Source: Escherichia phage EK8. From it: a DNA stretch of 64,000 nucleotides. How positions within the stretch are numbered: the first letter of the stretch is position 1; the number at the start of each line of letters is the position of its first letter. The stretch lies in sequence record PQ805430.1; one strand, 5' to 3'. The notes beneath the pieces were generated by a model. It ran no database searches, was not told the origin of the DNA, and saw nothing but the letters and a program-made list of their open reading frames with translations. Positions 21,388 to 51,435 of this stretch are shown here, in pieces. The position numbers and the translations under genes are program-made.

Positions 21388-22011
21388 TTATGCACGGATG
21401 ACAAGTTGCATGTCTGGTACAGTCAAAGCAGCGTTCGTGTCCTGCACGTAGACTGCGTTATGTGGGTCACCCTCTTCCAGTGTCTTCTGTAACTTTTGAC
21501 GACCACCATACGCATATCCCTGGGCCATATAGAACAGAGTACCATCAGGTAGGTCACCAAACCGCTCCACACGCGGTAAATCGCTTGCACCTACATCAAC
21601 TACAGGCAGATTGAGTTCAGTCGCTCTGTGAGCGATACAGGCGCTTTTAGAGGGATTGACCATCTCGCTACGCTCAATGGTCGCTTCGCTGCACTTCATG
21701 CAATTACAAGCATCACCACATACAGATAAGTCAGTAAGTGGTTTGATTGGACGACAGAACTCAATAACATCTGACCAGCCATCTACAGGCTCATTATCAC
21801 CGTGGAACAGTGTGATGTAGTGGAAGTCAGATTCACGCTGTCCTAACAGCCATGCGTATACAGATGCTTTATCTTCAAACTCTTTCTCTGTCGAGTGAGT
21901 TGCATCAAAGGTCAGATAGTCCAGTACGAATAACGTAGTCATAGTATGTCTCCAATAAGTTAAGTGTATTACTTCACTTAAAGTGCTATGCACTACTACC
22001 GGTCGTAACAC
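21388..22011 (-). CDS. hypothetical early protein with Cys cluster (207 aa)
   Basis: ORF; CGDACNCMKC motif. Confidence 0.45.
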   Translation of the reverse strand: MLRPVVVHSTLSEVIHLTYWRHTMTTLFVLDYLTFDATHSTEKEFEDKASVYAWLLGQRESDFHYITLFHGDNEPVDGWSDVIEFCRPIKPLTDLSVCGDACNCMKCSEATIERSEMVNPSKSACIAHRATELNLPVVDVGASDLPRVERFGDLPDGTLFYMAQGYAYGGRQKLQKTLEEGDPHNAVYVQDTNAALTVPDMQLVIRA

Positions 22012-22038
22012 TACGGTACTACGTACCTACGTGTTACT

Positions 22039-22090
22039 GACTAACCAATACTTCGTACTACGCTTCGCTACGTACTCGTATTGGTTAGTC
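22039..22090. repeat. perfect 13-bp inverted repeat gactaaccaatac / gtattggttagtc with 26-bp spacer
   Basis: read directly at 22039..22051 and 22078..22090. Confidence 0.8.
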
Positions 22091-22118
22091 TTACATCCCT
22101 AGTTATGTATACACATAC

Positions 22119-22259
22119 TAATAGTAAGGTTATTAGATATAAGGTAGATATGAGTTATAGATATAGGATAGGTATAGGTATAGAGATAGTAGTTGATAGG
22201 GTATAGGTAGAGATAAGTGATATAGATATAGATAAAGTAGTAGTAAGAGTAAGTAGTAA
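22119..22259. repeat. cytosine-free microsatellite-like tract (GTA/TAG/ATA units)
   Basis: 141 bp with no C on plus strand; only 4 C in 22119..22320; units taggta, gatatag, gtagtaa. Confidence 0.8.
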
Positions 22260-22520
22260 CAAAGTAGTAAGTAAGTAGAGATAGTAGTAACAGGTAGATA
22301 CTAAACATAAGTAAGTAGTGTTTTACTCAGTAAATACATCCTAATCTCTGTCAACCTTTTCCACTAATATAAATTTCCGATAAGGGTTATCGATAAAAGT
22401 GGTATAGGAAACTTACTGTATGATTTCTGACCGTCATACCTAGCGCGAGTAAAAGCTGTAAAGTTTTGGTAACTTATAGCGCGCCTTACTGTCTCAGTGG
22501 TGAGTTGTGTAATGTGTAAT

Positions 22521-22557
22521 TGTGTAGAAAAGAAATAGCCTACTCCGAAGAGTAGGC
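22521..22557 (-). terminator. rho-independent terminator after the first early gene
   Basis: 8-bp stem gcctactc/gagtaggc, loop cgaa, then ctatttcttttct on minus strand. Confidence 0.5.
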
Positions 22558-22564
22558 ATTGATG

Positions 22565-22819
22565 TTATGCAGTAGCAGTAGCTGATGCAGCCAGAGCTTT
22601 GACTTGGTTATCAAGCTCAGACTTAGCTGCGTTGTAAATCATCTGGTCTTTGATTTCGATGAGTTCACCGAAGCGTTTAGCTTTGTTCTCTGCTACCTTA
22701 GCCAGCTCATCACCAGCAGTAGCCAGACGATTGACTGCGGTTGCAGTTGTGGTGACAGTGGATACGGTTGCAACTACAGCACCAGTGAGAGCAGCGAACA
22801 GACCTTGTGGTTGGGACAT
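22565..22819 (-). CDS. hypothetical small protein (84 aa), apparently monocistronic
   Basis: ORF followed immediately by a terminator. Confidence 0.5.
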   Translation of the reverse strand: MSQPQGLFAALTGAVVATVSTVTTTATAVNRLATAGDELAKVAENKAKRFGELIEIKDQMIYNAAKSELDNQVKALAASATATA

Positions 22820-22991
22820 GAGTAATACTCCATAGCTATTGGATTAATGTAAGGGATGAAGGCATCTCACCTTCAAGACTCTGAAGCCTCCCACATCGCA
22901 GAGCTACGATTGTGGGTGCATACATGTGATTAATCTCAAGCAGACAATGTATGAAAACACTGAATGAGATGGATACGTATATCCATATGAT

Positions 22992-23002
22992 GGCCTATGG
23001 CC
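22992..23002 (-). promoter_or_regulatory. hairpin element ggcc-TAT-ggcc (weaker relative of the cgcTATgcg hairpins)
   Basis: 4-bp GC stem, TAT loop, about 175 bp upstream of gene start 22819. Confidence 0.2.
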
Positions 23003-23133
23003 TGAATTGTGTAAGGCGTAGTAAGAATCCTTTTTCAGCCAGCACTATGGAGGGGGTATCCACCCAAAGCTACAGCCAGAGTAGTAAGTTGAGCACTCGT
23101 ACCTAAATTAAAAAATTTTATAAAAGTTTTCCC

Positions 23134-23334
23134 TTAAACTTTTTTATCTCTATCCAGCGGAGCTATCCTGTTTACCCACCCTTCAAACTTATCCCTGAGT
23201 TTATCCATACCGTTCCAAATACTTTCAAAGATATAAGCAAGCACTAACGCTATACCACCCACCAACCATATCACTAACCAAACTGGCAGCAGAGAGATAC
23301 GGATAGCCTTGCTCTTGGTACTCATGCGATACAT
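23134..23334 (-). CDS. small membrane protein (66 aa)
   Basis: one strong TM helix; GAGG RBS; flanked by AT-rich sequence. Confidence 0.4.
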   Translation of the reverse strand: MYRMSTKSKAIRISLLPVWLVIWLVGGIALVLAYIFESIWNGMDKLRDKFEGWVNRIAPLDRDKKV

Positions 23335-23362
23335 AAAATTTTCCTCATAAAATTTTTAAAAA

Positions 23363-23391
23363 TTGCCCAACCTTTCGACCCTATTTATACT
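23363..23391 (+). promoter_or_regulatory. sigma70-like promoter candidate for the late operon
   Basis: -35 ttgccc (23363..23368), 17-bp spacer, -10 tatact (23386..23391), about 30 bp before the first late gene. Confidence 0.3.
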
Positions 23392-23422
23392 CTGGCTTAG
23401 AACCTATAGGGAGACTATATCA

Positions 23423-24272: not shown

Positions 24273-24412
24273 TTACCTTATGGCCCGATTTCAAAGATCA
24301 ATCCCTGGCTTTCAACGAAGAAGAAGGTAAGTGGGAATTTAATAGCCGCCTCTACAGACGTAGGGGCCAGGCCGAAAAAGCAGCCTGGAAAGCATGGAAT
24401 AAGATGCGATGA
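24269..24412 (+). CDS. small protein (47 aa, below ORF-track cut-off)
   Basis: hand translation MITLWPDFKDQSLAFNEEEGKWEFNSRLYRRRGQAEKAAWKAWNKMR; overlaps both neighbours by ATGA. Confidence 0.3.
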   Translation: MITLWPDFKDQSLAFNEEEGKWEFNSRLYRRRGQAEKAAWKAWNKMR

Positions 24413-26022
24413 AAGACCTGGTAATGGGAGAACAGATCACCGCCCGCACCGTGGATAGCTGGTTGGCAGACGTTGACTATAACGACGATCCGACTTACCA
24501 GCCGTCCCGGTTCGCGCTGGAATTTGTGCTGTTCATCAAGATGGTGAACGGCGGGCAGGGGGAGGAAAACAAATCCCCCGTCCTGCACTACAAAATGTTG
24601 GATCAGGTTGTGTCCGGCGATACCCGTATCGCCAACATGATTCACCGTGGTGCCGCTAAGACGACCATCATGGGTGAATACCTGTTCCTGTATATCGGCG
24701 TTTATGGGGAGATCCCCGGCTTCGGTAAAATTGAACTGGCCTTGTACGTGTCGGACTCCATCGATAACGGCGTGAAGAACATGCGTAAGAACCTGGAGTT
24801 CCGCTATGAGAACAGCCCGTTCTTGCAGCAGTACATCCCGGTAGCGAAGTTCACTGATATCCGCTGGGAGTTCCAGAACGTCGATGGTAATAAGTTCGTG
24901 GTCAAGGGCTACGGTGCGAAGACCGGCGTTCGTGGTACGAAAGAAATGGGTAAACGTCCCCGTCTGGCGGTACTCGATGACCTGGTTTCGGATGAGGACG
25001 CACGTTCTCCGACTGTTATCGCGGCCATCGAAGATACCATCTACAAGGCAGTGGAATACGCCCTCCACCCTGAACGTAACATGATGATCTGGTCGGGTAC
25101 GCCGTTTAACGCATCCGATCCACTGTACAAAGCAGTCGAGTCCGGTGCCTGGTCGGTTAACGTCTACCCGGTGTGCGAGCGTTTCCCCTGCACGAAAGAA
25201 GATTTCCGGGGTAGCTGGCCTGACCGTTTCCCGTATGAGTACGTCAAACGCCAGTACGATAAGGCGTTACAGGCCGGAATGATTTCGATGTTTAACCAGG
25301 AGCTTATGCTTCGCATTATGTCCGACGAGGATCGCCTGATCGCAGATGGTGATATTCGTTGGTACAAAATCGACCTGGTTAAAAATAACCCGACCAACTT
25401 CAACTTCTACATCACCACTGACTTTGCGACCGGCGAGAAGCAGGCGAATGACTTCTCGGTTATCTCCGTGTGGGCTTATAACAACAACGGTGACTGGTTC
25501 TGGGTAGACGGGATCTGTAAACGACAGGATATGGCCAAGAACATTGATGACCTCTTCCGGCTCAATGCAAAATACAGGCCAATCTCCGTGGGTGTTGAAG
25601 TCTCCGGGCAACAGCAGGGCTTTATCTCAATCATCCAGGAGCGTATGGGCCGAACCAACAACTGGTTCACTCTGGCTTCAAACGAGAACTCAAACCAGCC
25701 TGGTATCAGGCCGAATACGAACAAGCTGCAACGCTTTAACGTAGTCGTGCCCTGGTTTAAGGCCGGTAAGATGTATTTCCCGATTGAGCACAAACATGAA
25801 GCCCCGCTCATGGAAATGATGGATGAACTTAAGCTGGCCTCAGTCGGAGGGTTTAAGTCCAAGCACGATGACGCCGTTGATACCATCTCCATGCTCGCCA
25901 GCATGAAACCGTTCAAGCCGAGCGAAGAAAGCACGCAGACAACCTGGGAGGATGGTAATATTTGGGATCAGAAAGTTGATGATGGTTGGGGCGATAGTGG
26001 CCTTAACTCCTACCTACCGTGA
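24409..26022 (+). CDS. terL: terminase large subunit
   Basis: 537 aa; Walker A-like HRGAAKTT, Walker B LAVLDD, C-terminal nuclease-like region with acidic residues. Confidence 0.8.
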   Translation: MKDLVMGEQITARTVDSWLADVDYNDDPTYQPSRFALEFVLFIKMVNGGQGEENKSPVLHYKMLDQVVSGDTRIANMIHRGAAKTTIMGEYLFLYIGVYGEIPGFGKIELALYVSDSIDNGVKNMRKNLEFRYENSPFLQQYIPVAKFTDIRWEFQNVDGNKFVVKGYGAKTGVRGTKEMGKRPRLAVLDDLVSDEDARSPTVIAAIEDTIYKAVEYALHPERNMMIWSGTPFNASDPLYKAVESGAWSVNVYPVCERFPCTKEDFRGSWPDRFPYEYVKRQYDKALQAGMISMFNQELMLRIMSDEDRLIADGDIRWYKIDLVKNNPTNFNFYITTDFATGEKQANDFSVISVWAYNNNGDWFWVDGICKRQDMAKNIDDLFRLNAKYRPISVGVEVSGQQQGFISIIQERMGRTNNWFTLASNENSNQPGIRPNTNKLQRFNVVVPWFKAGKMYFPIEHKHEAPLMEMMDELKLASVGGFKSKHDDAVDTISMLASMKPFKPSEESTQTTWEDGNIWDQKVDDGWGDSGLNSYLP

Positions 26023-26030: not shown

Positions 26031-26939
26031 ATGAAATTAAGACTGTCCGACGTATTGGATAACCTTCTGGTCGGAGAGTTCGCACAAACAGGCTGGGCAC
26101 AAGATGGTGAGTTTTCCGTAGCGACGGTGAACAAGATTATCATCCTGCTCAATGCTGCATTGGGCGATATCTCTTCTCGGTTCTGGATTAAGAGGAAAGA
26201 AGTCTTCCTCCAGACCTGCCGGGGCCAGACGCTGTACGTGATCGATAACTCGGTCGCAAGTGCCCAGATGAAATTGCAGGGTGGCAACTGTAATTTAACC
26301 ACCAGCACTGGTGAAGTCTGGGAAGATGATCTCCAGCAGATCTATGAAGTCTATGACTGCAACGGGAATGAGATGCCTCTCGCGCACGACGTAGGTTCGC
26401 CGCACGCCAGTGCAAGGCGAACCTGCAAGTGCGGGGCACCGATTAGCCCGGAAGAACTGGATGAGATGTGTTACAAATGCCGTAACGCCCGGTTCAGTAA
26501 AACCGTGGATAAACCAGGTACGATTGTTACCCGGCACCATCCGTTTGGTGTACCGAACATTCGTCCGGGCGACTCGTGCTCTATCCAGCTTGCAGCGTAT
26601 AACACGATCCGTGTACCGGATAACCTGACTCCGCAGAAACTGCGTGTCGTGTACCGGGCAACGGCGAAGCGTGTTAAGAAAATTGAAAACAACGGTGTCC
26701 CATATGACCCAACTCGAATTTTTATTGATGTGCCTTACGAGTATCTCCAGGCGATTCTTTTTTATATTGCTTCTCGTAAGTTCAACTCTAATAAATCCGG
26801 GGTACAGGGTGGGATGCACGAAGGGAACAACTACTACCAAAAATACATTGCAGCCTGTACACTACTGCAAGACCAGGGAGCCGGTGTCGAACCGGTAGGG
26901 AACTCAGGAAGTAAGTTCGAACAGAACGGATTTGTATAA
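26031..26939 (+). CDS. hypothetical protein with zinc-ribbon-like Cys cluster (302 aa)
   Basis: ORF; CKCGAP...CYKC. Confidence 0.5.
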   Translation: MKLRLSDVLDNLLVGEFAQTGWAQDGEFSVATVNKIIILLNAALGDISSRFWIKRKEVFLQTCRGQTLYVIDNSVASAQMKLQGGNCNLTTSTGEVWEDDLQQIYEVYDCNGNEMPLAHDVGSPHASARRTCKCGAPISPEELDEMCYKCRNARFSKTVDKPGTIVTRHHPFGVPNIRPGDSCSIQLAAYNTIRVPDNLTPQKLRVVYRATAKRVKKIENNGVPYDPTRIFIDVPYEYLQAILFYIASRKFNSNKSGVQGGMHEGNNYYQKYIAACTLLQDQGAGVEPVGNSGSKFEQNGFV

Positions 26940-26940
26940 T

Positions 26941-26968
26941 AAAAAGCCCCTCATTGAGGGGCTTAATT
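26941..26968. terminator. bidirectional rho-independent terminator candidate
   Basis: agcccctc-att-gaggggct flanked by A-run upstream and T-rich downstream; sits between convergent genes. Confidence 0.5.
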
Positions 26969-26970
26969 AT

Positions 26971-27417
26971 TTAAATGCTACAGGCACCGCTTTCACACTT
27001 GTTGTTCTCAGCAAACTCAGCCAGTGCAGCTTTGGTCTGAATTTCTTCAAACAGACGCTGTTTCAGGCGATAACCTTCCACCAGCCAGATCTTCTCAATG
27101 GCGTTTTCACGGGCAACATCGCAGCCAATGGAGAAGTTAAAGTTCTCCGGGCTGGCGCAGGCAGAATGACCAATCACGGTGAAGCCGTTTTCCAGAGTCA
27201 GTACGCAGATGGTCACCAGCTTATGGGACTCCAGCGTTTCCTGGGTGGTATCCGGGGAATCACTGTTCTGGTTTGCACCGGAGATACCTTCGGCAGCGGT
27301 GAAGAAGACTTCGGATTTAATCAGGGACTTGATGTAATCCGGGGTAAGACGCGGAGCTTTATCGGCACCAGCAGCAACAATTTTCTGTTCGAGATCAGAC
27401 ATTGGGTTTCTCTTCAT
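26971..27417 (-). CDS. hypothetical protein (148 aa; start may be the Met at 27402)
   Basis: ORF in minus-strand island. Confidence 0.45.
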   Translation of the reverse strand: MKRNPMSDLEQKIVAAGADKAPRLTPDYIKSLIKSEVFFTAAEGISGANQNSDSPDTTQETLESHKLVTICVLTLENGFTVIGHSACASPENFNFSIGCDVARENAIEKIWLVEGYRLKQRLFEEIQTKAALAEFAENNKCESGACSI

Positions 27418-27535
27418 AGAGTGGTTTCATGGAATAGCCGAACATGACTGCATTGTCATACTCGACACTGTTGGCAAATACCAGGTACTTCTTGCCACGG
27501 CGATCCGTGACTTCATAAGCATAAGGTATCGGCAT
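27395..27535 (-). CDS. small protein (46 aa; tentative)
   Basis: hand translation MPIPYAYEVTDRRGKKYLVFANSVEYDNAVMFGYSMKPLYEEKPNV; stop overlaps downstream ATG. Confidence 0.25.
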   Translation of the reverse strand: MPIPYAYEVTDRRGKKYLVFANSVEYDNAVMFGYSMKPLYEEKPNV

Positions 27536-27704
27536 AATTTGTACCTTTTCTTACCCGTGAGAGTATACGTCTGCACATGGATTTAGTGATCGGGGAGCTA
27601 TGCTCAAAGAACATTAGCTTATTACACATTGTTACCACAGCGAGACAGAATACTCCCTGCTCATCTGGTTTAGTCCGGTAATAACGTTTAATTTTCATAG
27701 GTAT

Positions 27705-27737
27705 CCTTAATGGAAAAAGCCCCTCCAAAGAGGGGCT
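27705..27737 (-). terminator. rho-independent terminator candidate
   Basis: agcccctc-caaa-gaggggct then ttttccatt on minus strand. Confidence 0.45.
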
Positions 27738-27836
27738 ATTCCAGGCTTGCAGGTGCATAGGCGCTTTTATATTCCCTATGCGGATAACCTTGTCGGGTAT
27801 TTCCAACCATTACGCACCAGGCGTAACGACGGGAAC

Positions 27837-28082
27837 TTATAAGCCAGCCTTGATAACTTCCAACTGGCTTTTCATCATCACCCAGAATACGGCTGGTATC
27901 TTCTCGTAACCGAGGTTTATAAACATGTCACGTATCTGAATGTTATGAATACGTTTGGCTATAAGCAGACTACAACATCTGAGCTTATCGTCAACGGGTT
28001 CGTTATACTTTTTTGCCATAGCAATACAGAGATCTACCGTATCCACGGCATCAAGAAACTCATCAATAGGATCGGGGAACAT
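27837..28082 (-). CDS. hypothetical protein (81 aa)
   Basis: ORF downstream of tRNA genes. Confidence 0.45.
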   Translation of the reverse strand: MFPDPIDEFLDAVDTVDLCIAMAKKYNEPVDDKLRCCSLLIAKRIHNIQIRDMFINLGYEKIPAVFWVMMKSQLEVIKAGL

Positions 28083-28113
28083 GATTGTTACTCTGGTTTA
28101 GGGAGGGTATGAA

Positions 28114-28189
28114 TTGGATGGGGTATCTGGATTCGAACCAGAGAATGCCGATATCAAAGACCGGTGCCGTAACCACTTGGCTATACCCC
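28114..28189 (-). tRNA. tRNA-Gln (anticodon UUG), 76 nt with encoded CCA
   Basis: hand-folded cloverleaf: 7-bp acceptor, T-loop TTCGAAT, anticodon loop CTTTGAT; close to E. coli tRNA-Gln as recalled. Confidence 0.85.
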
Positions 28190-28194
28190 AGAAG

Positions 28195-28270
28195 GTGGCG
28201 ATGGGATGGAGATTCGAACTCCAATGTCGCGGATTAACAGTCCGGTGCTTTACCGAGTTAGCTATCCCAT
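28195..28270 (-). tRNA. tRNA-Asn (anticodon GUU), 76 nt with encoded CCA
   Basis: hand-folded cloverleaf: acceptor GATGGGA/TCCCATC, T-arm TGGAG-TTCGAAT-CTCCA, anticodon loop CTGTTAA. Confidence 0.8.
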
Positions 28271-28661
28271 CTTATTAATTAAGACACTCTGTTACCTGCC
28301 GATCCATGTGGCTGCATGGAATGATAACACACTGAGATTAGGGTATGAGCCTGTTCAATGTTGAGTGTCCTAATTAATAAGCCCCCTGTAAAGCCGGGGG
28401 GGCAACTCCGAGTTCGGTAATCTGGTTCTGGTTCCAGAGCACTCCAGGTATTAAGCCTTTGTGCAGGGACGGGTCACTGCCCGTATTATCAAATCGTATT
28501 CCCAAAGTAGAACATGGTTCTTAGTCGCTGGCGTCACCGGTGCTTCTAAGCATCAACACACTCGTAAGTATGTTCAGGTTTAAAAGCTCCCCCATCGCTG
28601 AGGGAGAAAATTGATAATGCAGGTGGTGTAAGTTAAGTATTACCGCACCCGCAGCCAGATA

Positions 28662-29210
28662 TCAAGCCTGGTTTGGAAGAAGTTGAGAAAAATCTGGTTC
28701 GGTGAAAGTCACCATGTTTTTCAGGAACTTCCCTTCCGGGTAGAATTTACCGTTCAGTTTGATATCACGCTTAACCTTAATGCACATAGTCGGGTAGTTA
28801 CCGTGCAGATACAGGTCGTCAGGCTGGAAGCCCAGATCATAGTAATAAGCCAGGGCTTTAATCTTGTCGCCTTCGCTGCTAATGAACTTAGACATGTTAG
28901 ATTCATGCACCAGGTCATAGCAGGAGTTACCATCGAAACCAGCCACATGAGCTACTCCGTCGTTAACGGTGGTCAGGTCACCCTGTGCATCCAGGATACC
29001 GGGCATATCGATACTGGTTTCATCCGTATCGCCATTCAGATCCCAGACTACCTTCATACCAGGGTGTGCAGCTTCGACCATTTCGATAGCTTCCTCTAAA
29101 CAAAGCATTGCCTGTTTACGGATAGCCTTAACGTTAGGGTTGTTCAGATCGCCTTTCGCGTTACCAAATGCTAAATTAAGTGCAGTAACTTTTTCGAAAG
29201 TAGTTTTCAT
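28662..29210 (-). CDS. hypothetical protein, possibly all-alpha NTP pyrophosphohydrolase (MazG-like)
   Basis: 182 aa; LCLEEAIEMVEA resembles the MazG/HisE EExxE helix; AGGAAA RBS. Confidence 0.35.
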   Translation of the reverse strand: MKTTFEKVTALNLAFGNAKGDLNNPNVKAIRKQAMLCLEEAIEMVEAAHPGMKVVWDLNGDTDETSIDMPGILDAQGDLTTVNDGVAHVAGFDGNSCYDLVHESNMSKFISSEGDKIKALAYYYDLGFQPDDLYLHGNYPTMCIKVKRDIKLNGKFYPEGKFLKNMVTFTEPDFSQLLPNQA

Positions 29211-29275
29211 GAAAGGTTTCCTTTCTCTTTAAATTGACAATAATGGGTGAAATTATTCACCAGAGCAGAGGACAT

Positions 29276-31513
29276 ATGACTGACCTTGCCCCCGATGACG
29301 TACAGATTGCTGCTGGGGTAGAGGTGCCTAAGCTGACCGACTGGTCGCGTGAACCGACGCTTTCCATTTTCAAACAGGACTTGCAGAGTTGCGAATCCTC
29401 GCACCAGGCTCAGATGAGCAAGGTCGAAGAATGGAATGACTATCGGAATGCGACCGGTAAAGCGGCACCGAAAACCACTAAAGGGCAATCCAAAGTTCAG
29501 CCTAAACTTATTCGTAAGCAGGCTGAGTGGCGGTATGCTGCATTATCGGAGCCGTTCTTAGCAAGCCCAGATCTGTTTAAAGTCTCCCCGATTACCTGGG
29601 AAGATAAGAAGGGGGCTGTTCAGAACGAACTCCTGTTGAACATGCAGTTTACTAACAAGATGAACCGTGTTGCTTTTATCGATGAGTACGTTCGTGCTGC
29701 TGTCGATGAGGGCACCGTTGTGCTGCGTACTGGTTGGGACTTCGAAGAGGTTGAAGAAACCGTCGAAGAACCTATTTACCAGGGTATGGTTGATCCTCGC
29801 ATGAGCGATATCTATCAGCAGATGCAGCAACTGGAAATGGAAAACCCAGTCCAACTGCTCAGTCTTGACCAATCACTGCAAGACGGATATGCCCAGTTCA
29901 AACAGACTGGCTTACCAATCCGTTTAATTCAAACCGGCGTGCGTATGGTTAAAAAGATGCGCACCGTCAAAAATCAGCCAACTCTGGAAGTATGTCGGTT
30001 GGCAAACCTCTATATTGATCCTTCATGTAATGGTGATATTAAAAAGGCCAACTTTGTAGTTTATGCCTTCGAAACCTCCATCGCGGAATTGAAGGCAGAG
30101 GGCCGTTACCGAAACCTGGAGAAACTCAATGTCTCATCTGAATCGCCTTTATCGGCTGCTAACTTCACCCCGAATGCTGCCCCCGATTTCCAGCCAGCAG
30201 GTAAATCCCGTAAGAGAATTGTTGCTTACGAGTATTGGGGATATTGGGATATTGACGGTAGCGGTCGTCTTACTGCAATTGTCGGCACATGGGTAGGTGA
30301 TACCCTCATCCGTCTGGAAGAGAACCCTTTCCCTGACGGTGAACTTCCATTCACTATCGTGCAATACCTGCCGGTGCGTAAGGCCGTATACGGTGAACCC
30401 GATGGCGAACTCCTGAAAGATAACCAGGATATCGCTGGTGCTGTAACCCGTGGGATGATTGACCTGCTCGGCAAATCGGCTAACTCGCAGACTGGCTTCG
30501 CCAAGTCTCTGCTCGATAGCCTCAACAAGAAACGTTACCAGCAGGGACTCGACTATGAGTTTAACCCTGGGGTATCACCGGAAAATGGTATCTATAGCCA
30601 CAAGTACCCGGAGATTCCGGTATCTGCTCAGTACATGCTGAGCCTGATGAATACCGAAGCCGAATCCATGACAGGTGTTAAAGCGTTTGCCAATACCGGT
30701 CTGGACGGTGACTCCCTGGGTGGTACTGCTACGGCAGTCCGTGGGGCACTGGATGCAGCATCCAAACGTGAGATGGGTATCCTCCGTCGTTTATCCACTG
30801 GCTTAGTGGAAGTGGCCCGTAAGGTCATTGCCATGAATGCTGTATGGCTGGACGAGGAAGAGGTAGTCCGTGTTACCGAAGATGAGTTTATCCCGGTACG
30901 TCGTGACGATCTGAAAGGTGAGTTTGACCTCAAGGTCACTATCTCCACCGCAGAAGCCGATGAGCAACAAGCTCAGGATCTGGCATTCATGCTCCAGACT
31001 CTGGGTAACAATATCGACTTCGGTATGACTCAGATGATCCTCGGTGAGATTGCCCGTCTGCGTAAGATGCCTGATCTGCAACACAAGATCATGTCCTTCC
31101 AGCCGCAGCCTGATCCGATGCAGCAAGCTATCCAGCAAGCTCAGCTTGAACTGCTGCAAGCTCAGATTGAACTTACCCGTGCTCAGGCTCTCGAAGCTGG
31201 TACTAAAGGTTCTCTCAACCAGAGCAAGGTTCCTGTTGAACAGGCTCGTGCTAACCACATTCAATCCAGTGCGGATAAAAACAATCTGGATTTCCTCCAG
31301 GAACAGAATGGGGTTAAACACCAGCAACAACTGGAACTTACCCGGACGAAAACTGATGAGCAAATGGCACTCGCTGAGTTGCAAAGTAACCATCAATCCA
31401 CGTTGGCTAAGCTCACCCATAACTTAAATCTGTTGCAGGAACATGCGAAGGCTGGCTTAAACAGACAGACTCAACGTATGAATAACGCTGGACGAAGCCC
31501 AGCAACTGCGTAA
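29276..31513 (+). CDS. portal protein
   Basis: about 746 aa between terminase and capsid genes; GAGGA RBS before ATG 29276 (ORF-track TTG start at 29234). Confidence 0.6.
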   Translation: MTDLAPDDVQIAAGVEVPKLTDWSREPTLSIFKQDLQSCESSHQAQMSKVEEWNDYRNATGKAAPKTTKGQSKVQPKLIRKQAEWRYAALSEPFLASPDLFKVSPITWEDKKGAVQNELLLNMQFTNKMNRVAFIDEYVRAAVDEGTVVLRTGWDFEEVEETVEEPIYQGMVDPRMSDIYQQMQQLEMENPVQLLSLDQSLQDGYAQFKQTGLPIRLIQTGVRMVKKMRTVKNQPTLEVCRLANLYIDPSCNGDIKKANFVVYAFETSIAELKAEGRYRNLEKLNVSSESPLSAANFTPNAAPDFQPAGKSRKRIVAYEYWGYWDIDGSGRLTAIVGTWVGDTLIRLEENPFPDGELPFTIVQYLPVRKAVYGEPDGELLKDNQDIAGAVTRGMIDLLGKSANSQTGFAKSLLDSLNKKRYQQGLDYEFNPGVSPENGIYSHKYPEIPVSAQYMLSLMNTEAESMTGVKAFANTGLDGDSLGGTATAVRGALDAASKREMGILRRLSTGLVEVARKVIAMNAVWLDEEEVVRVTEDEFIPVRRDDLKGEFDLKVTISTAEADEQQAQDLAFMLQTLGNNIDFGMTQMILGEIARLRKMPDLQHKIMSFQPQPDPMQQAIQQAQLELLQAQIELTRAQALEAGTKGSLNQSKVPVEQARANHIQSSADKNNLDFLQEQNGVKHQQQLELTRTKTDEQMALAELQSNHQSTLAKLTHNLNLLQEHAKAGLNRQTQRMNNAGRSPATA

Positions 31514-40141: not shown

Positions 40142-43100
40142 ATGGCAGACTCTCTGTTGTCCCAGGCTCTTAATGCTTTAAGCAACGGCGAGTTCACCAA
40201 TCCTACCGAAGCTGTTTCCGTTCCGCAGGCTGCTCCCCAGCAGCCTGTCTCCAAAGATTCTCAAGTCCTTGACGCCACCCAACGTATTAATACTGGCTTT
40301 GCTGCTAAGGGCATCTATCCGTCTATCTCTGGTGAAATCGAACGTTTAAATCAGCAAAAAGCAGGACGTGAACAAGTCGTTCAAGCATACGAAGAAGATA
40401 TGCAACGTCTGGTTCCAACCAACGCTTTAGAGTCTGGTTCCCCGGTAATTCGCACCGGTGCCCAGATTACCAACGCAATGGCTGGTTTCGGCAGTTCAAT
40501 TGCACGTATCGCTCTCCAGGTGAAAAACCTTAACAATCTCGGTGCTGTAGCTGCCGGGATGGACGGTGCCACCGATGAAGAAAAACTCGCCTTTAACCGT
40601 GAAGCCACTCAACGTGGTGCTGAGGCTGCTGCACTGGTAGGCAATAATGCCCGTCGTGTTCAGGATATCCTCGGCGGTGTTCCGGGTGCGTCTGCTAAGG
40701 CGATTGCCGAAGCATCTGAAATCCCGAATCAGCTTAAGGCTTACCCTTCTGATACCAACCTGCTTGACCGTGAGATTCCTCGTGGTGCAGCAAAAATTCC
40801 TTCTGCAACTCAGGACGATTCTCTTCTGGGTTCGGTAGGTCAATACTTCAATAACCTGAATGATCGACTTGTCGGATCGGTAAATGGCATGACTGGTGAA
40901 GACCAGACCGGCCAGACTGAATCTGTACGTGACCGACTGCAACGTGCTCAGACTGCCCTTACCCAAACTCAGAAATCCCTGGGTAACACTGCACAAGGCG
41001 TCGATAACGAATGGGGAACGGACTCCTGGGTTAACCGTGAACAAACTCAACGTATGGCTCAGCAACTGGAAGAAGAGAATAAAGATCTCTCCATCCCTGG
41101 TGCTATTGCTAACACTGTTGGGGAATATCTGGCTAACCCTTCACTGGTTATCCAATCTGCCGCAGAGTCCTTACCTTACGCACTTGGTCGTGTCGGTATC
41201 ATTGCCGGTACTACCGGTCAGGCGGTACAAAACCAGACTGATGGTTACCGTGGTCAGGCAGATGGACAGCTTCCTACTGATGAGCAAATCAGTGATGTAA
41301 CCCGACTCAATGCGTTGCATTCTGGTTTGAACTTTGTGGAGAACGTAGTCAATGCACGCGCTCTTACCGGTCTTAGCAATGCTGCTATCACTGCTCCACT
41401 TCGCCGTGGTGGTGAAGCACTGGCTGATACTGCCCTCGGACGAGCGATTACCAACGCTGTCGCTCGGAATGGCGTATCTCGTGCTGCTCTGGCAGCAGGG
41501 CGAGCAATTACTCCCGAACCTGTTAGGGAACTTGGCCTGACTATGGCCATTAACGGTCTGACCGAAGCTGCACAAAATCAGATCGAAACTCGCAACCTGC
41601 TCGGTGATGATCGCTGGGATACCGAAGGCAACATCAATGCTGGTGTGCTTGGTGCCCTGTCTGCTGGTGTAATGACTGGCCCATCTACTCTGGCGGCTGG
41701 TGCCGGTGCCGTAGGTGAGCGTATTGCCCGTGCTGCTCAGGAACGTCGTGACGCTGCTAACCCACAAGCTGCCGAAGCTCGTCGTGCTGCACAAGACGCT
41801 GCTAAGCCGTTTGAAGATCTGACCAACCCGGAACATGCGGATTACAACCCGCAGGCTGCTATTCGCCAACAGACCAACGTGTTTGCTGATGAATCAACTA
41901 CTCCTGAAGTACGTCAGGCTGCTATCGACCGTGCTCAGTCCGTCCGTGATTCTGCCGAACAGAACCTGGCTTCGGTTACTGATGAAGTACGCCAAATCCA
42001 GAAAGATATGGCTACCCGTCAGGAAATCGAACGTCGTCTGGAAGATATCCAGACCAACCCGGATTCTGAGTACAAAGGTAGCGAAGCTCAACTGACCACT
42101 ATCCGTGACCAGATTGATGAGCGTATGCCGGATGAAGCTGCTCAACAGGATCTGGTTTCCCGCTTCCAGGCTGCAAACGAAAACGTTGAACGTGTGCGTA
42201 GTGCCTACGATCAGTTTGAGAATGCTGCTGGTCTGCGTGAACGTCAGGCTCCAGAAGAAGCTCAGGCTCAGATGGATACTGCTACCAATCCTGATGCAAC
42301 TCAGGAACAGGTTGATACGGCTGCTGACCATGTGGTTACGCACCCTATGCAGTACACCCCGGAACAACTCCGTACTCTGGCCGATGATACGACCAACCGT
42401 TTCAGCGACACTCAGCGTGAAGCGATTCGTAAACTGGCTGATGCCCGTGTTGCCCAGAACAACCTGAAAGATGATCTGCGTGTAAACCAGGATATTATGC
42501 AGGGTGGTAAGGGCTACCGTTCCCTGGGTGAATACACCTCTGCTTATGCTGCTGCTATCCGTTCCGGTGATAAGACTATGGCTACCAACCTGCGTGAGCA
42601 GTTAGGTCGCTTCCAGGCTTCTCATGAACAGAAAGCTGCCGTTGCTCAGCAAATGATGGACTCTGGTAACTACGGCCAGCTTATCCGTCAGAACAGTCAG
42701 TGGGTGGCTAACGAAGGTAAGAAACTTCGTGGTAAAGATAAGACCCGTAACGGTGCTCTGGATATTCATTCTGGCTCCGGTCGTCTGGTTGCTCGTCTTC
42801 AAGAAGAAGCCGAAGCAATCCGTGCAACTTCCGCTGCCCTGGATGCAATGTCTCAGGCTCGTCCGGCTGCTCCCGCTACCGCTCCGCAGCCGTCCTCCCC
42901 TGCACCAGCGAACGACGCAACCACAACGGTGGAGGCGAAGCCGGAACCGGCAGTGGTGGAGTCGGAAGCGACTGTTACCAAATCATCCCTCTCTCACTAT
43001 GCCAATGACGGCGTACTGACTCAGGATGCTGATGGTGATATGGCTCTGCGTCTGGATCAGTTCTCTCCGGCTGAACAACAGTTCCTGCGTGACAACAATA

Positions 43101-46100
43101 TGGTTGATGCTCAGAACATGGTTAAAGCTGCTTTCTTACGCCGTGCTGAACCGCGTAAAGATGACGCCCATAAACCACGTACTCTGAACCAGCAAGACCG
43201 CATTGCCCCGGCAGAACAACAGACTCAGCAAGAGCAGGTACAGGCTCAGGATACCAATGAGAATGACCCTACTCCGGCCAGCACTGTAGAAACCGACACC
43301 AACGTAACTACCGATCAGACTACGGCAACGAAGACTGACGAGAACACGAAGGCAGACGGTGCTACCCGTGTCCTACGTCCAGAAGGTAAATCTCTGGAGA
43401 CTGCCCGTACCGAAGAACGAGCTAAGCCATTCTCAGAACAGAACCTTGTTCTCACTGGTTTCGTTCAGCGTGTCCGTGAAGGTTTCGTTAACCCACTGGT
43501 TACCGTTGAAAACTTCATGTCCAGCGTTATGGATAAAGCTGACTGGTCTGGTCGCTTCACCGAAGTGAACCGTTACCTTGCTCAGCCGATGAACGCTGCC
43601 CAGAAGAATCTGGTCGGTATGTTCACCAAATTCCATAAAGCAGTGGAAGGTGATATCGATCCTGCTATTAAACAGAAGATCGGTAAAACCCGTGGTGGTC
43701 TGGATCGCTCTGCTTATAACTACCAGGATTTTGTCCAGTTTCTTACCACTGACGGTAAACTGGATGAAAACACGAAGACGGCCCTGACCGCCTCTATGTT
43801 CACCTGGCTTGCAGAGAACGGTAACAAGCTCATCGCCACTCGTGACGATATGGCTGGCCTGTTCCATATGGATAAAGGTGAAGTACCGGTAGAGATCCAT
43901 AATCGCTTCTCTGAGATCGGTTCTTCTCAGCGTGCTGTTATCCAGTCCCTTGGCCAACGTGCTTACCAGATGCTGGGCTTCAAGGTACTGAAAGACGTTG
44001 ACCCTAACCGTGCTGGACGTATGCAGCAAGCTCTCGGCATGTACGCAATGCACGTTATGATGAAACGTGGCTACCTGGAGCAGACAACTATGACTGCTCG
44101 TGAGTACGCCGACGTTATCACTACTGGTTTGGATCCTGAAGCTGCTCAGGCTAAACGTGCAGAGTTTGCTCGTGACTTCCTGAATGGTGAGTCCATCGAT
44201 AAAGCGAAAGAGACATTCAACTTTGTTCGTGTACCACGTAAAGAAGTAAACGGTAAACTCGTACCGGCAGATAACATTGCCCGTATCGTTGAAGCCAACA
44301 AAGGGACTTCCGGGGTTATGAGCAAGCTGTTTAGCTTTGACTCATCCCAGACTTTCCCGTTGACTAAGAAGCCAGGTAAATTCATTCAGAATACCGTAGG
44401 TGACTTTGGTCAGCAGGTTCCTTCTGAATTGGCAGAACGTCTGACTAAAGCCCAGCAACAACCGTACCGGATCAATGAGTCCCTGGTTAACGCCATGAAC
44501 ACGATCCGCAATGTGGATGAAGCTGCATTGCTGCACATGATGGGTGTTCGTACTGAGACAGAAACTCCGTTCATGCACGCTCGTGACCGTATCGGGCAGC
44601 AGGCCAAAAACGACGATATCATTCGTGCTCTGGCTAATGCTGATGAGGTAATGGGTACTCTGGATTCCATCGACCAGCAGATCTATATGCCGCTGGCAGT
44701 ATGGAGTAACAACCGTGTCGGCGTAGCGTCCAACATGCTCAACCCGCAGGGGAACAAAGTTCACCGTGCAATGGTAGGCATGGAAGCACACCGTGTTGAT
44801 ATCCCGGTAAACCAGGCACCAATCGACGCCAACGGTAACATCACTGAGTACGGCCAGTTCTTACTGACTGTGGCTCAGGGTATGGAAGAGGCGCCGATCA
44901 AGAAACCAGGCACTACTGATAAGATGCCTACGGTTGATAAAGTGACTGGTGGTACTTATCTGCAAGGTATGCAGGAATACCTGAAAAGTGACAGCGTTCG
45001 TGCTGGCATTAAAGCCATGCAGAATATCGTTGAGGGTAACTCCACTCCGCGTGATATCGAAACCGTTAAGCAAACCGTTGCCGAATTTGGCATGGGGCCA
45101 CACTCCTTCCAGTCACTCCATGCACTGGCTCTGGTTAACCAGGCTCGTGAACAGGGTGCTGAAAAAGTGCAGGTTGCTATCGGTGGCGAATCAGATGGTG
45201 TCACCAACGGGCCGATCCTTACCAATGTGCTCTATGGTACGGCAGACACTGACCTTCTCGCTCGTGGTGGCCTTTACACTGCTGACGCTGGTGTTACCAA
45301 CGTACCGCAGTACCGCGAACAAGGTGGGCAGGACTACTACCAGTTATTGGGGACAGCTCAGAAGGAAGCATGGGATGCCATGTATCCTCCGACGACTGGC
45401 CGGGTAACGGATCAGAACCAGAAGTTCCGTCGTGCAATTGATTACTTATCTCCTGGTTTCGGCTCTCGTTCGAAAGCCAAAGTACAGGCTACCCCATTCA
45501 ACTACGGTTCCGGTATGGACTCGCTCAAGCGAGCAAGTGCCAGAGACACCATTGATAGTGTCTACGGTCATATCACTGATATTGCCGAAGCCTATAGCCG
45601 TTCCAAAGTTGAGGGTGATTTTGCTCGCCATAAACTGGAGAAAGCAATCGAGATCGTACTGGCCCAGGGCAAGACGCTAGGGATTAAAGTTCCCGCATTT
45701 TCCGGCCTGGGTAAAACGGAATCACTGTTAACCACCGAATTGCCACGTCCAATTGTGGACGCGATTATGCAGATCGATATGGCTATCCGTGGTGAAGCAT
45801 CCGAGACTGCGATTGAGCGTGTTGCTGCTCACTACATCAAAACCCGTGACACTAACACTGCGATTACTAATGCAGCGTTTGAAGTGGGCAAAGTTGTACG
45901 TGACCGTGCAGAGGCTCTGGCTCTGGAACAGGCAGTTAAAGACGGGCAAGTAGGTTCCATCAACGATATCGCCGTAGAAGGCTTATCGACTGATGCAAAA
46001 GCTAACCTGTCTGAACAACTGCGTGAAGCCAGTGCTATCGTCCCTACCGCTACCGGATCCCTTTCCAAAAATAAACTGGAATCAGGTTACGTGGCTGCTA

Positions 46101-49100
46101 AGGTCGGTACTACCTTCAAAACCAATGACCCAACCACCGAGGTATATGCCTCGTTCCGTGAGGGTGCTAACCCTACTGGTACTGGCTTAACCAACACCAA
46201 ACCGACGACCTTTAAGGACGTAAGATCTGGCGCTCAGGTTAAAGAACAGATCGCTCCGGGTGTGTCTACAAGTGCATTGGTTGTGCAGGGTACTGATGCT
46301 GCAATCTCAACTCGTGTTATCGCTGAGCGTCCGGCTCAGAACTTCCATGATGCGAACCTGTTCGCTATTACGGATATGATTGAAGGTGCCAAAGCGCAGA
46401 ACAAAGCCATGTGGGATACAGTGGTCGGTTATGACTCTCAGTTAGCGAATACCGAAGCATTAATCCGCACCCTAGAAGGTGTTACCCAACAAGACGGATT
46501 AACGTCACTGGATTGGATTAATATTGCCGGGTCTTTGCAACAACTGGCTTTCAAGGCTGAACTAATTGGATCCCCTAAAGAGTCCGTATCGGCGGTAGCC
46601 GTACTTGGACGGGTAGTCGGTGATGCTTATAACCGTGAGATTGCCAAGCTCAACACACTCAACGAAGTTGAGTATGTAAACCAGTATGGTTATGAGGGTG
46701 GTGAATACCAGGTTACTGCTGCCGACCGTAAAGCTCTGGCTGACAAAATTGACTCTCTACGCATATCACGGGATAAAGCGGTTGATAAGGCAATGACTCT
46801 TGGCGGTGAACTAAATACCCTGCTACAGCAAGGTACAACCACATCCAAGCGTAAAGCCGATGCTGTTAATGCTGCTCAACGCCGTCAGGCTATTGAACAA
46901 GCTGCTGCTGATAGCGTACCGGTTACCCGTGATGCCAAAGGCAAGAACGCTCTTGAGCGTTTCCTGACTGAAAGCAAAGACGGCACCGTTAATGCTAAAG
47001 ACCTGATGAACTTTACCGTTAAGTCCCTGGCTTCCGGTCGTACTGATGGTTCAGCACTGCAAAGCCGTATGCGTACCACTTACAGCGAACTTGCTAAAGT
47101 GCTCGCAGCGACTCTGCCGGAAAACCTGACCGTTAATATCCTGTCTGCTCAACATAATCCAAAAGGGGTTATGGGTGCTGAGCAGAACGTTAACTCACGA
47201 GCATGGTTTTATAGTGACGGTAAGGTAAACCAGATCAACATCAAGATGGATGGCCCGGAAGCACCGGGGCTGGAAGTTGTGCTGCATGAAATGCTTCACG
47301 CTGCCACTGCCCGTGCTCTGGATGCTGCTCGCCGTGATCCTAAAGCTAACCCGGCTCTGACCGAAATCGTTGGCCGACTGGAATCACTGCGTAGCGAGAT
47401 CGAACAGTCCGTACAGAGTATGCCTCAGTTTGCACCGGCAGTCCGTAACGTGGACGAGTTAATCTCGTGGGGTATGACTAATCCGGCATTTCAGCAACAT
47501 CTTGATGGTTTGCAGTCCTCCATGTACCCACGTCAACGCGAAGGTGTACGTGGTCGTCTGGGTTCCATGTTTAAACAGTTTGCCAACACTGTGCTGCGTG
47601 CGGTCTACGCCTTTACTGGTCGTAAGCCTTCCGCTAAACAGATGACGGCAATGGAAGCCCTAATTCTGGATACTGCTGACGTACTCCAGACTGCCACGGT
47701 TAATCCGGGCAATGCTGGTAACGTTAATCTGGCAATGGCCTCATCTACCCGTGCAGCACAAACTGCCGGACAGTACACCCATCGCCAGATATTCGATGCT
47801 CTGTCGTCCTCGACTGCTGGTAAGCGGAACACTTCTGCCTTTACCGGAAATCTGGGTAAGATCATCGAAAATGTATCGGATAAACTGTTTAGTCAAATTG
47901 GTGGTGATCACCTGACCAACCTTCCGGCAGGTCACGGTTATACACCGGGCCAGGTATGGGCGAATGCTCTTACCGGGGGCAAGGCACCGTTCACTACCAA
48001 AGCATTGGCTGCTGGTTTCCACATGACTGACCAGGAAGCATTCGCTATCGAGTCCATTGAGACTGCGGTTGCTGCTGCTCTGGATTCTGGTTTCGGTACT
48101 GCTGTGAACCGTGAGATCCGTAAATCCTGGGAAGCTGCCCGTAAGCAGGTAACCCCGGAACAGTTCCATAACGGTAACTGGAATACGGCTACCCCGGCAG
48201 AGAAAGCTGCTGCACAAGCAAAGTGGGATCACCTGTTCAAACTGGAAGCCAGCCAGAACGGTAAGAACCGCTACCTCGCACAGTTTGTGGCAATGACTCT
48301 GGGTCATGAAGAAACCAGTAAACTGATGGGCTTCACCAATGAAGTTGCCGATGCTAACGCTCCGGTCACTCCGTTCGAGAAAGCTGCTGCCTTCTTTAAC
48401 CATTCGGTTAACTGGGCATCGGGTTACCTGACTCGCACCAACAATGGCCAACTGGTAAACCAGAAGGCTCAGGCACTGGCTCAACAGTTGATTGAAATCG
48501 ACTTGAAGAACCGTGACAAATCCGTTGATGCACTTGAGAAAGCGTTTATCTACGTCAGCGATCTGGGTGAGAAAGCTGGTAATAAAATCTGGGATGCTGC
48601 TCATGCAACTGCTGATGCGAAACTGATTCGTGAGAACCCTCTCGGTATCGTTCGTATGGCCGGGTCTATTACCCGTCTGGCTGCTAAGCGTAATCTGGAT
48701 GTGCTGAGCGATACCATTCGTCAGGTACGTGATATGAATAACCCGAATACCGCTGATGGTTGGGCTGCTCAAATCCTGTCTGATATCGCTAACCCGGATA
48801 AAGTACGTAGTGCGTTCGAATCGCTGCAACGACACACGAACCTCATTGAACAACGTCGCCGTAATTTCGCAGAAATTACTCGTGGCAACGTGATGGGAGC
48901 GTTCGAAAATAACGGTGAGTATCTGACCAACGAAGATAAAACTGCGTTGTCTTATACCCTGCTGCGAACCGAAGCACACTCACTGCTCAATACCCGCTCC
49001 CTGGATGACGTTCAGCAACTGGTTTCCAGCAAAGCTAAACGTAATGCAGAGATTCGTAATCTGGAGCAAATCGTATTGGCAGATCCGAATGGTAATGATA

Positions 49101-51426: not shown

Positions 51427-51435
51427 CTATGCTCC

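Follow-up and report, generated by a model that had tools for sequence, protein, structure and literature searches.

A probable lineage-conserved accessory cassette in a variable slot between the gp67-like and portal genes of N4-like phages

Phages related to N4 collect counter-defense genes in an anti-signaling hotspot that lies between the DNA primase and the virion RNA polymerase (vRNAP) genes. This hotspot is variable and non-essential, gathers Acb4, Tad2, Sequestin, and RyR Tad, and includes N4 gp48 (Acb4), N4 gp49 (Tad2-like), and CB1 gp68 (RyR Tad); in RyR Tad, the C-terminal RyR-like domain carries the anti-Thoeris activity, while the N-terminal domain alone is inactive (Fedorova et al. 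2026, bioRxiv 10.64898/2026.06.04.730250). The Acb4 family (PF13876) comprises tetrameric sponges that bind 3'3'-cyclic GMP-AMP (3'3'-cGAMP) and thereby defeat the cyclic oligonucleotide-based antiphage signaling system (CBASS) (Chang et al., bioRxiv 10.1101/2024.12.30.630793). Here, we analyze a minus-strand cassette at positions 26971-29210 of a 64,000-nucleotide (nt) stretch of DNA (hereafter, the window) from Escherichia phage EK8 (PQ805430.1), an N4-like, Cbunavirus-like member of Schitoviridae. The cassette is flanked on the left by a gp67-like virion gene and on the right by the portal gene, and parts of it have been listed for relatives: a tRNA-Asn/Gln pair was reported for CB4, Possum, and Horatius, and a pyrophosphohydrolase is also listed (PMC6027278, PMC9569702). 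These papers describe no hotspot, Acb4, or RNA for the locus, and nothing else in the papers that we searched describes the RNA, places Acb4 at this position, or treats the gp67-portal junction as a hotspot.

Our results make it probable that the cassette is a lineage-conserved accessory module, with proposed functions for several of its parts, that fills a variable slot found at the gp67-portal junction across Schitoviridae. Its minus-strand open reading frames (ORFs) occupy 26971-28082 and 28662-29210, amid plus-strand late genes, as a preliminary description of the window had stated (Table 1). The same description correctly listed tRNA-Gln and tRNA-Asn with encoded CCA, which ARAGORN and Rfam both detected, as well as two terminators, recovered here as hairpins at 26944-26964 and 27718-27737, and a MazG-like candidate all-alpha nucleoside triphosphate (NTP) pyrophosphohydrolase, for which motifs and fold provide support. 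The small proteins fared less evenly: the Acb4-family, 46-amino acid (aa), and DUF7740 ORFs were found, but the Acb4 identity had been missed and a 61-aa ORF is doubtful. It also overlooked the 390-bp gap between the MazG-like gene and tRNA-Asn, in which we found what appears to be a conserved structured RNA.

To place the locus in its family, we retrieved 80 IMG/VR loci that surround relatives of the portal and labeled their ORFs. The census comprises ~65 loci in which both gp67 and the portal were recognized. Across these loci, the gap between the two genes ranges from 3 bp to 9 kb. In many relatives whose portal is ~50% identical, gp67 directly abuts the portal gene (3-120 bp gap) and there are no tail genes. 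The ordered cassette (Acb4, small ORFs, tRNA array, RNA, and MazG) is present in all Cbunavirus records, with varying tRNA content, and a variant of it is carried by Efbeekayvirus (Klebsiella and Erwinia phages, portal 60-67% identical); the order is conserved in Kc283, CB1, CB4, Horatius, and SABI, with variants in FBKp27 and MIF8. Migulavirinae (Pseudomonas phages Ab09 and LUZ7) and Littlefixvirus have an opposite-strand trimeric dUTPase (PF00692) in the slot, either alone or with two small ORFs, and no tail genes at the junction. In N4, tail genes gp64-66 and lysis genes gp60-63 are found on the late strand between gp67/gp68 and the portal gene gp59, and tail and lysis genes fill the interval, again on the late strand, in an Alteromonas phage. 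In Ithacavirus and Nahantvirus, the tail genes give way to a cassette on the opposite strand, adjacent to the portal, which contains lysis genes and DUF7740 in the former and PhoH and an M15 peptidase in the latter.

The cargo of the slot is thus almost always on the opposite strand and next to the portal, and it comes in distinct sets: MazG with Acb4 and tRNAs; dUTPase alone; dUTPase with a Tad2-like gene or PhoH; lysis genes with DUF7740; and PhoH with M15 peptidase. Two IMG/VR contigs, in which either a Tad2-like gene 48% identical to N4 gp49 (L069:6043-6471) or a PhoH-like gene (L091:55-639) stands beside the dUTPase, provide further evidence that the slot collects accessory and counter-defense genes. 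Because the gap is variable and its cargo differs, the gp67-portal junction is a family-wide variable slot, and because gp67 abuts the portal in many relatives, the cassette is extra cargo within it. Sequence comparison further indicates that the cassette is an old, conserved occupant of the slot in one branch and not a fresh insertion.

Table 1. Features of the cassette and its flanks in the EK8 window.
Feature	Position	Strand	Evidence and remarks
TerL	24409-26022	+	left of gp67-like gene
gp67-like virion structural protein	26031-26939	+	phrog_2125 E=1.7e-60; last plus-strand gene before cassette
Bidirectional hairpin terminator	26944-26964	both	GC-rich stem of 9 bp with a 3-nt loop; separates the gp67-like and Acb4 genes, which are convergent
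Acb4-family (PF13876) protein, 143 aa	26971-27402	-	PF13876 96.3 bits; predicted anti-CBASS sponge
46-aa ORF	27395-27535	-	phrog_34266 E=8.5e-17; translationally coupled to Acb4 gene
61-aa ORF	27513-27698	-	good ribosome-binding site; doubtful gene
Intrinsic terminator after DUF7740 gene	27718-27737	-	8-bp stem, 4-nt loop, T-run; kept in relatives
DUF7740 protein, 81 aa	27837-28082	-	PF24886 28.9 bits (cut-off 28); phrog_6022 E=4e-29
tRNA-Gln (UUG)	28115-28190	-	ARAGORN; Rfam 59.9 bits; CCA encoded; 3'-most array member
tRNA-Asn (GUU)	28196-28271	-	ARAGORN; Rfam 59.9 bits; CCA encoded; 5'-most array member
Long hairpin, 19-nt arms	28363-28381 + 28271-28289	-	inverted repeat I1, 95% complementary, 73 nt apart
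Structured RNA core (predicted)	28370-28493	-	five helices, the last a terminator-like GC hairpin, then U-rich tail
Hairpin with T-run right after MazG-like gene	28580-28606	-	read by eye; missed by consensus scan
All-alpha NTP pyrophosphohydrolase (MazG/DR2231-like; predicted), 182 aa	28662-29210	-	phrog_2144 E=3.8e-67; divergent from portal
Divergent intergenic region, 65 bp	29211-29275	.	between MazG-like and portal genes
Portal (N4 gp59-like)	29276-31513	+	PF23899 SU10_portal E=5e-152; phrog_1216

The 390-bp gap contains a block that is near-invariant at the nucleotide level across relatives, even between genera with proteins 55-60% identical. The comparison gives good support for a structured RNA of ~120-210 nt in this gap, confined to Cbunavirus and Efbeekayvirus. 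Conserved sequence and a covarying 5' hairpin reach ~28585, and the RNA may span ~28376-28585. A covariance model (R1) built on a hand-set five-helix structure scored the window copy at 134.7 bits and one copy in each of 23 other cassette-bearing loci at 91-142 bits, with no strong match beyond these 24 loci among the sequences searched. In the alignment that was counted, which had been fitted to the model and covers about six sequence types from two genera, 98.9% of the cells are paired and 8 pairs show compensatory double changes; controls slid by 1-3 columns gave at most one such pair, and none of 500 shuffles attained the observed values. Helix 1 occurs as CAGGG/CCCUG, ACGGG/CCCGU, or ACAGG/CCUGU, and helix 2 as GCAC/GUGC, GUAC/GUAC, or AUGC/GCAU. 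RNAalifold likewise found several hairpins with compensatory changes, including a further one 5' of the core.

The RNA is always directly downstream of the MazG-like gene, and it is kept there in MIF8, which has lost all tRNAs and Acb4. Blastn detected the block in 32 phage records, all of them Cbunavirus or Efbeekayvirus, and we therefore rejected an association with the MazG homologs of Ackermannviridae. A host origin was rejected as well: a motif of 23 specified bases had no exact match in 185,579 bacterial and archaeal genomes and was found in 14 IMG/VR contigs, all N4-like. An Rfam cmscan of 26800-29400 on both strands (E<=5) returned the two tRNAs and chance-level matches, none of them over 28272-28661. 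Pairing between the RNA and the tRNAs was also considered and rejected, as the best runs of 8 nt (Gln) and 7 nt (Asn) were reached by 46 and 174, respectively, of 500 mononucleotide shuffles of the RNA. The 3' tail of the RNA is joined to the 5' edge of tRNA-Asn by the hairpin with 19-nt arms, a possible processing stem, which is present in CB1, SABI, and FBKp27; in its place, Kc283, CB4, and some of the Efbeekayvirus contigs have a hairpin that is shorter and AT-rich. Public records leave 28370-28585 unannotated or call it "hypothetical protein" or "promoter."

The assignment of the 143-aa protein to the Acb4 family is based on both sequence and predicted structure. Its PF13876 match (E=1.5e-27, cut-off 27 bits) covers all 82 profile positions, and its sole relative by sequence in the PDB is SPO1 Acb4 (9e4w), with E=5e-5 for the single sequence and 3.4e-8 for the profile. 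With the AlphaFold2 model (pLDDT 82.6) as a query, Foldseek ranks 1-13 were all 9e4w chains (prob 1.00, TMt 0.57-0.67, 24-28% identity), and the fold agrees with that of the SPO1 protomer, which combines helices at the N terminus with a three-stranded sheet and a long helix at the C terminus. Among the residues that contact the ligand in SPO1 Acb4, F48, F62, N63, and I66 are conserved, and K36 and K81 fall outside the aligned stretch. The protein is 78% identical to its closest relative, in Kc283, 46% to that of CB1, and 36% to N4 gp48. Its ORF opens at 27417; the ATG at 27402 is the probable start, as it fits the relatives and overlaps the stop of the upstream 46-aa ORF (ATGTCTGA), as in Kc283. 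The N4-like Acb4 proteins end in a tail with two conserved cysteines, F(A/L)ExxxCE(G/S)G(G/A)C(K/T/S)I (window 26971-27030; N4 gp48; L004:3633-4004). A Horatius gene in the same slot (L013:1530-1904, MN812691.1) was considered as an RyR-type Thoeris sponge and rejected, as it matches PF13876 with 92.6 bits; its "ryanodine receptor" annotation appears to be wrong.

The counterparts of the 46-aa ORF in Kc283, SABI, and the IMG/VR relatives show 88-91% identity to it, and its place is always directly upstream of Acb4; the DUF7740 protein is 95-98% identical in CB1 and SABI. Neither has a relative in the PDB, and we found no paper that mentions DUF7740. In Salmonella Ithacavirus UTK0002, the cassette that precedes the portal on the opposite strand has a DUF7740 gene (L011:8984-9310) beside its lysis genes; of the occupants that the slot has in common across phages, DUF7740 may be the oldest. 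The 61-aa ORF sits in a ~165-bp stretch specific to the EK8 window. It has no Pfam or PHROG match, and neither tblastn nor blastn found 27536-27700 in any relative, which leaves its status as a gene doubtful.

The 182-aa product of the MazG-like gene is, as judged by motifs and predicted fold, an all-alpha NTP pyrophosphohydrolase. Its EExxE, DAxGD, and SNxxK motifs are invariant in 22 homologs with identity down to 54% (residues E39, E40, E43, D74, D78, S104, N105, and K108). The sequence profile matches DR2231 at E=0.007, the top Foldseek match is 3nl9, although a weak one (E=0.24), and the helical-bundle fold of solved superfamily members was judged to be present. Homologs at 54-55% identity carry a precomputed PF01503 match. 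The most likely substrate of the enzyme is dUTP or another unwanted (d)NTP, with the conversion of dUTP to dUMP as the leading guess, because several relatives with ~50% portal identity hold a classical dUTPase at exactly the same position, because DR2231, the nearest characterized sequence relative, is dUTP-specific, and because the phage encodes a thymidylate synthase. No trimeric dUTPase was found in the window. The candidate enzyme is thus likely to take the place of the dUTPase found in those relatives.

ARAGORN detected exactly two tRNAs in the window, 5 nt apart, and both exceed the Rfam RF00005 gathering score of 29. Relatives have between 0 and 7 genes in the array. In all those with tRNAs, Asn(GUU) is the member nearest the MazG-like gene, and Gln(UUG) closes the far end, the sole exception being one locus (L021) in which Gln is followed by an additional Ser(GGA); between Asn and Gln, the presence of Tyr, Asp, Ser, and Pro tRNAs varies. 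CB4 has the Asn/Gln pair, while CB1 and CB3, which are 93% or more identical, have none (PMC6027278). In EK8, Gln is the amino acid most enriched in late proteins (6.06% versus 4.02% in early ones, 1.51x, p=4e-10), and Asn is third (5.83% versus 4.39%, 1.33x, p=1e-5). This enrichment fits a role of the tRNAs in supplying late protein synthesis; a counter-defense role is also possible.

The cassette is oriented like the early and middle genes, and hairpin terminators split it into at least three units. Terminator-like sites number 8 in the region, against 2.9 +/- 1.6 in shuffles. The FBKp27 record annotates a bidirectional terminator at the position matching 26944-26964, and the hairpin at 28580-28606 is retained in all relatives with differing stem sequences (alignments A1 and A2). 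The latter appears to be the terminator of the MazG-like gene and may, in addition, mark where the RNA/tRNA transcription unit is entered. The published CB1 hairpin-promoter sequences occur in the early region alone. In LUZ7, middle-stage transcripts run antisense through late gene blocks (PMC9163698), and therefore opposite-strand genes there can be expressed before or alongside the late genes. By analogy, the same timing can be proposed for the cassette.

The sequence comparisons directly show the gene content, the folds and family membership, the synteny, the RNA covariation, and the amino acid usage; enzyme substrate, ligand binding, expression timing, and a role for the RNA are deduced from them. 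Taken together, these data suggest how the parts might act. The NTP pyrophosphohydrolase would clean or reshape the nucleotide pool, and a structured RNA of ~120-210 nt would be made after the MazG-like gene. The tRNA array, cut down to its constant ends Asn and Gln, would raise the decoding capacity for late structural proteins. The DUF7740 protein would follow, and then the 46-aa ORF coupled to the Acb4-family gene, whose product, as a tetramer, could absorb cyclic dinucleotides such as 3'3'-cGAMP and so blunt CBASS. Two linked readings that go further are possible, and we put them forward tentatively. The RNA may represent a new class of trans-acting phage RNA and might, for instance, cooperate with the NTP pyrophosphohydrolase and the tRNAs as a decoy, sponge, or regulator, and the gp67-portal junction may be a second, undescribed counter-defense hotspot of Schitoviridae.

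Several results weigh against the reading of the cassette as an accessory module with these functions. In the Acb4-family protein, the SPO1 contacts E49, V56, Y57, and T70 are changed to T, C, A, and V, respectively, and its ligand specificity may therefore differ from that of SPO1 Acb4. No Pfam family matched the 182-aa protein at E<=0.1, including PF03819 (MazG), PF01503 (PRA-PH), and PF08761 (dUTPase_2). The comparison of codon usage suggested in the preliminary description showed Gln and Asn enrichment at the level of amino acids only: late and early genes alike use CAA for 32-33% of their Gln residues, and codon-level support for tRNA-Gln(UUG) was therefore rejected. A sigma-70 scan of the cassette gave 3 sites, none convincing, against 4.7 expected from shuffles, and a promoter search found no 11-mer common to at least three intergenic regions of the window. 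The small number of sequence types behind the RNA covariation, and its count on a model-fitted alignment, belong here as well.

The conserved block at 28370-28585 could also be a small protein gene, or it could act at the level of DNA, for instance, as a promoter. Several genomes have an ORF across it, which measures 111 aa in SABI and 43 aa in the window, the FBKp27 and Halo_KS_7 records annotate a promoter over the block, and the middle promoters of LUZ7 are GC-rich hairpins. However, this ORF (orf111) was rejected as a conserved protein gene, as it is broken by an in-frame stop in the window and by a 1-nt indel, varies from <40 to 111 aa, and has no counterpart of at least 40 aa in Kc283, CB4, or Horatius; third codon positions are, moreover, invariant between genomes with proteins only 55-60% identical. 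The eight compensatory pairs, the 19 G.U cells that pair on the minus strand only, and helix loops of 5-8 nt or larger, as compared to 3-4 nt in the N4 and LUZ7 hairpin promoters, also argue for an RNA gene, and we regard a protein gene or DNA signal as improbable. The cassette as a whole could, in turn, be a recently acquired mobile or foreign module that entered between terminase and portal and drove the ancestral tail genes to another place; the preliminary description had supposed an acquired module that displaced the ancestral synteny. Tail genes do occupy the locus in N4, as it had stated, and in Ithacavirus, Nahantvirus, and the Alteromonas phage, so that the EK8 arrangement is not universal in the family, and the EK8 tail genes do form a separate block from 60332, identified by a Peptidase_S74 domain and by the homologous block of CB1. 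The nearest MazG relatives outside Schitoviridae, in Ackermannviridae (51-57% identity), suggest past horizontal exchange, and tRNA content varies even inside one species. Yet cassette-free relatives with ~50% portal identity also lack tail genes here and have gp67 abutting the portal, and therefore the tail genes were not displaced by the cassette. Its synteny extends over two genera, and it holds no integrase or HNH gene, has no flanking direct repeats, and shows no compositional jump (GC content at third codon positions 0.52, versus 0.49 in late and 0.53 in early/middle genes). Thus, while the locus does differ from that of N4 and the cassette is discrete, opposite-strand accessory cargo, it is not private to EK8, and its recent acquisition is very improbable.

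A different possibility is that the whole cassette is primarily an anti-defense island, with Acb4 merely its recognizable member; the tRNAs would replace host tRNAs cleaved by anticodon nucleases, the NTP pyrophosphohydrolase would destroy nucleotide alarm signals or (p)ppGpp, and the RNA would act as a decoy or inhibitor. The presence of Acb4 itself and the Tad2-like gene that fills the same slot in contig L069 speak for such a role. N4-like phages are known to keep sponges in the primase-vRNAP hotspot (bioRxiv 10.64898/2026.06.04.730250), and that hotspot in EK8 (51247-55621, minus strand) has no Pfam-recognizable Acb4, Tad2, or Sequestin. Its 74-aa ORF at 55397-55621 (minus strand) matches only residues 1-69 of CB1 gp68 (183 aa) with 62% identity, which corresponds to the inactive N-terminal domain of RyR Tad; the C-terminal RyR-like domain is absent from EK8. 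The tRNA arrays of relatives hold Asn, Asp, and Tyr, that is, three of the four tRNAs with GUN anticodons, which are the targets of colicin E5-type nucleases. On the other hand, the anticodon loop of tRNA-Asn, CUGUUAA, is identical to that of Escherichia coli, the NTP pyrophosphohydrolase is closest, in structure as well as in sequence, to housekeeping dUTP/NTP pyrophosphatases, and relatives with ~50% portal identity carry a plain dUTPase in the slot. We therefore consider a primarily anti-defense island rather unlikely and favor a lineage-conserved accessory cassette.

The genomic setting of the cassette is that of an N4-like phage. The window encodes a 3696-aa virion RNA polymerase ORF (40142-51232) near N4-like structural genes, as well as an SU10-type portal, a terminase, and N4-like core genes. 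The nearest records are all Cbunavirus (Kosakonia phage Kc283; Pectobacterium phages CB1, CB3, and CB4; Nepra; phiA41; and Possum/Horatius), with ~83% nucleotide identity over 81-86% of the query in the one 8-kb segment compared; members of the genus share N4-type core genes, including the giant vRNAP, and at least 70% nucleotide identity, and EK8 shows both, the identity as judged on this segment. Compared with their Kc283 and CB1 counterparts, TerL has 92% and the portal 90% protein identity. EK8 is a distinct species-level relative of the known Cbunavirus phages. Late genes are on the plus strand at 23363-51232 and again from 60332, while early and middle genes are on the minus strand. The gp67-like protein is 91% identical to Kc283 gp88, and its CB1 homolog was confirmed in the virion by mass spectrometry (MS). 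The portal ORF opens at 29234, with a likely start at 29276, as indicated by the gene lengths in CB1 and Kc283 and by an AGAGGA ribosome-binding site; the 65-bp region upstream must hold or adjoin the start signals of both the MazG-like and the portal genes.

In the separate tail block, a tail protein is encoded at 60332-61051, and the ORF at 61063-63888 (plus strand) carries a Peptidase_S74 tail-spike chaperone domain; the block homologous to 60332-63888 is annotated in CB1 as a tail protein and an MS-confirmed virion structural protein. The thymidylate synthase gene (ThyA; 59473-60234, minus strand; 74% identical to CB1 gp63) is back to back with these relocated tail genes. Within 51247-55621, an HNH endonuclease with an AP2 domain (53955-54491) is inserted beside a Sak4-like AAA_24 gene. 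At 22000-23400, the GC content falls to 0.33-0.36 and the polarity flips, with early genes running leftward and gp69/terminase rightward. The physical genome ends and terminal repeat of CB1 map to the equivalent position, and therefore the window seems to derive from a circularized or concatemeric assembly. Among the public records, that of Enterobacter phage SonariX (PQ898399.1, 248,734 bp) includes a terminase-portal segment of the N4-like type whose match statistics equal those of the 76-kb SABI; the record may be chimeric or co-assembled.

The cassette itself is an already sequenced and mostly annotated feature of a known genus. What is new is the structured RNA, the assignment of Acb4 at this locus, the view of the junction as a second hotspot, and the likely replacement of a dUTPase. 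N4-like phages are candidate agents of phage therapy and biocontrol, with Klebsiella, Pectobacterium, Enterobacter, and Pseudomonas as targets, and their success depends on evading host defenses. Only the primase-vRNAP hotspot has so far been mined for counter-defense genes; the gp67-portal slot offers a second locus, and as it is flanked by two core structural genes, it provides a simple rule for finding more of them. The near-identical CB4, with tRNAs, and CB3, with none, form a natural experiment on the purpose of phage tRNAs, and the conserved RNA is a small, concrete candidate for a new phage RNA function.

As compared to the described systems, the EK8 cassette is closest to those of the Cbunavirus and Efbeekayvirus genomes that share it (CB1, CB3, CB4, Nepra, phiA41, Possum, Horatius, Kc283, SABI, FBKp27, and MIF8). 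It has the same order as the published Cbunavirus cassettes, from the gp67-like gene through the opposite-strand set to the portal, and differs from them by the ~165-bp specific stretch (orf61) and by an Acb4 that is nearest to Kc283. Like the primase-vRNAP hotspot, it fills a variable slot of N4-like genomes and contains an Acb4 sponge gene; in contrast to that hotspot, it is located at a different junction, in the late region, and adds tRNAs, an NTP pyrophosphohydrolase, and an RNA.

Its individual parts can be compared in the same way. The 182-aa protein shares a four-helix core with DR2231, 3nl9 (Exig_1061), the dimeric dUTPases, and phosphoribosyl-ATP pyrophosphohydrolase (PRA-PH, PF01503), as well as the EExxE, DxxxD, and SNxxK metal and phosphate motifs of the MazG-like superfamily, from which it differs by a ~20-residue loop between helices 2 and 3 and by a C-terminal beta-rich subdomain. 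The EK8 Acb4 homolog agrees with SPO1 Acb4 (9e4w) in Pfam family and fold, in F62, N63, and I66 of the adenine pocket, and in F48, which serves for stacking. However, at 143 aa as compared to 96 aa, it has an N-terminal extension, it shares with N4 gp48 a C-terminal CExGxCxI tail that SPO1 Acb4 does not have, and a Thr takes the place of the guanine-reading E49. Last, the tRNA region of T4 combines a short tRNA array with the small stable species 1 and 2 RNAs of unknown role. T4-type clusters thus resemble the cassette in having a tRNA array with an adjacent same-strand structured non-tRNA RNA, whereas the cassette RNA, for which no relation to theirs was found by sequence or in Rfam, persists in the tRNA-free MIF8.

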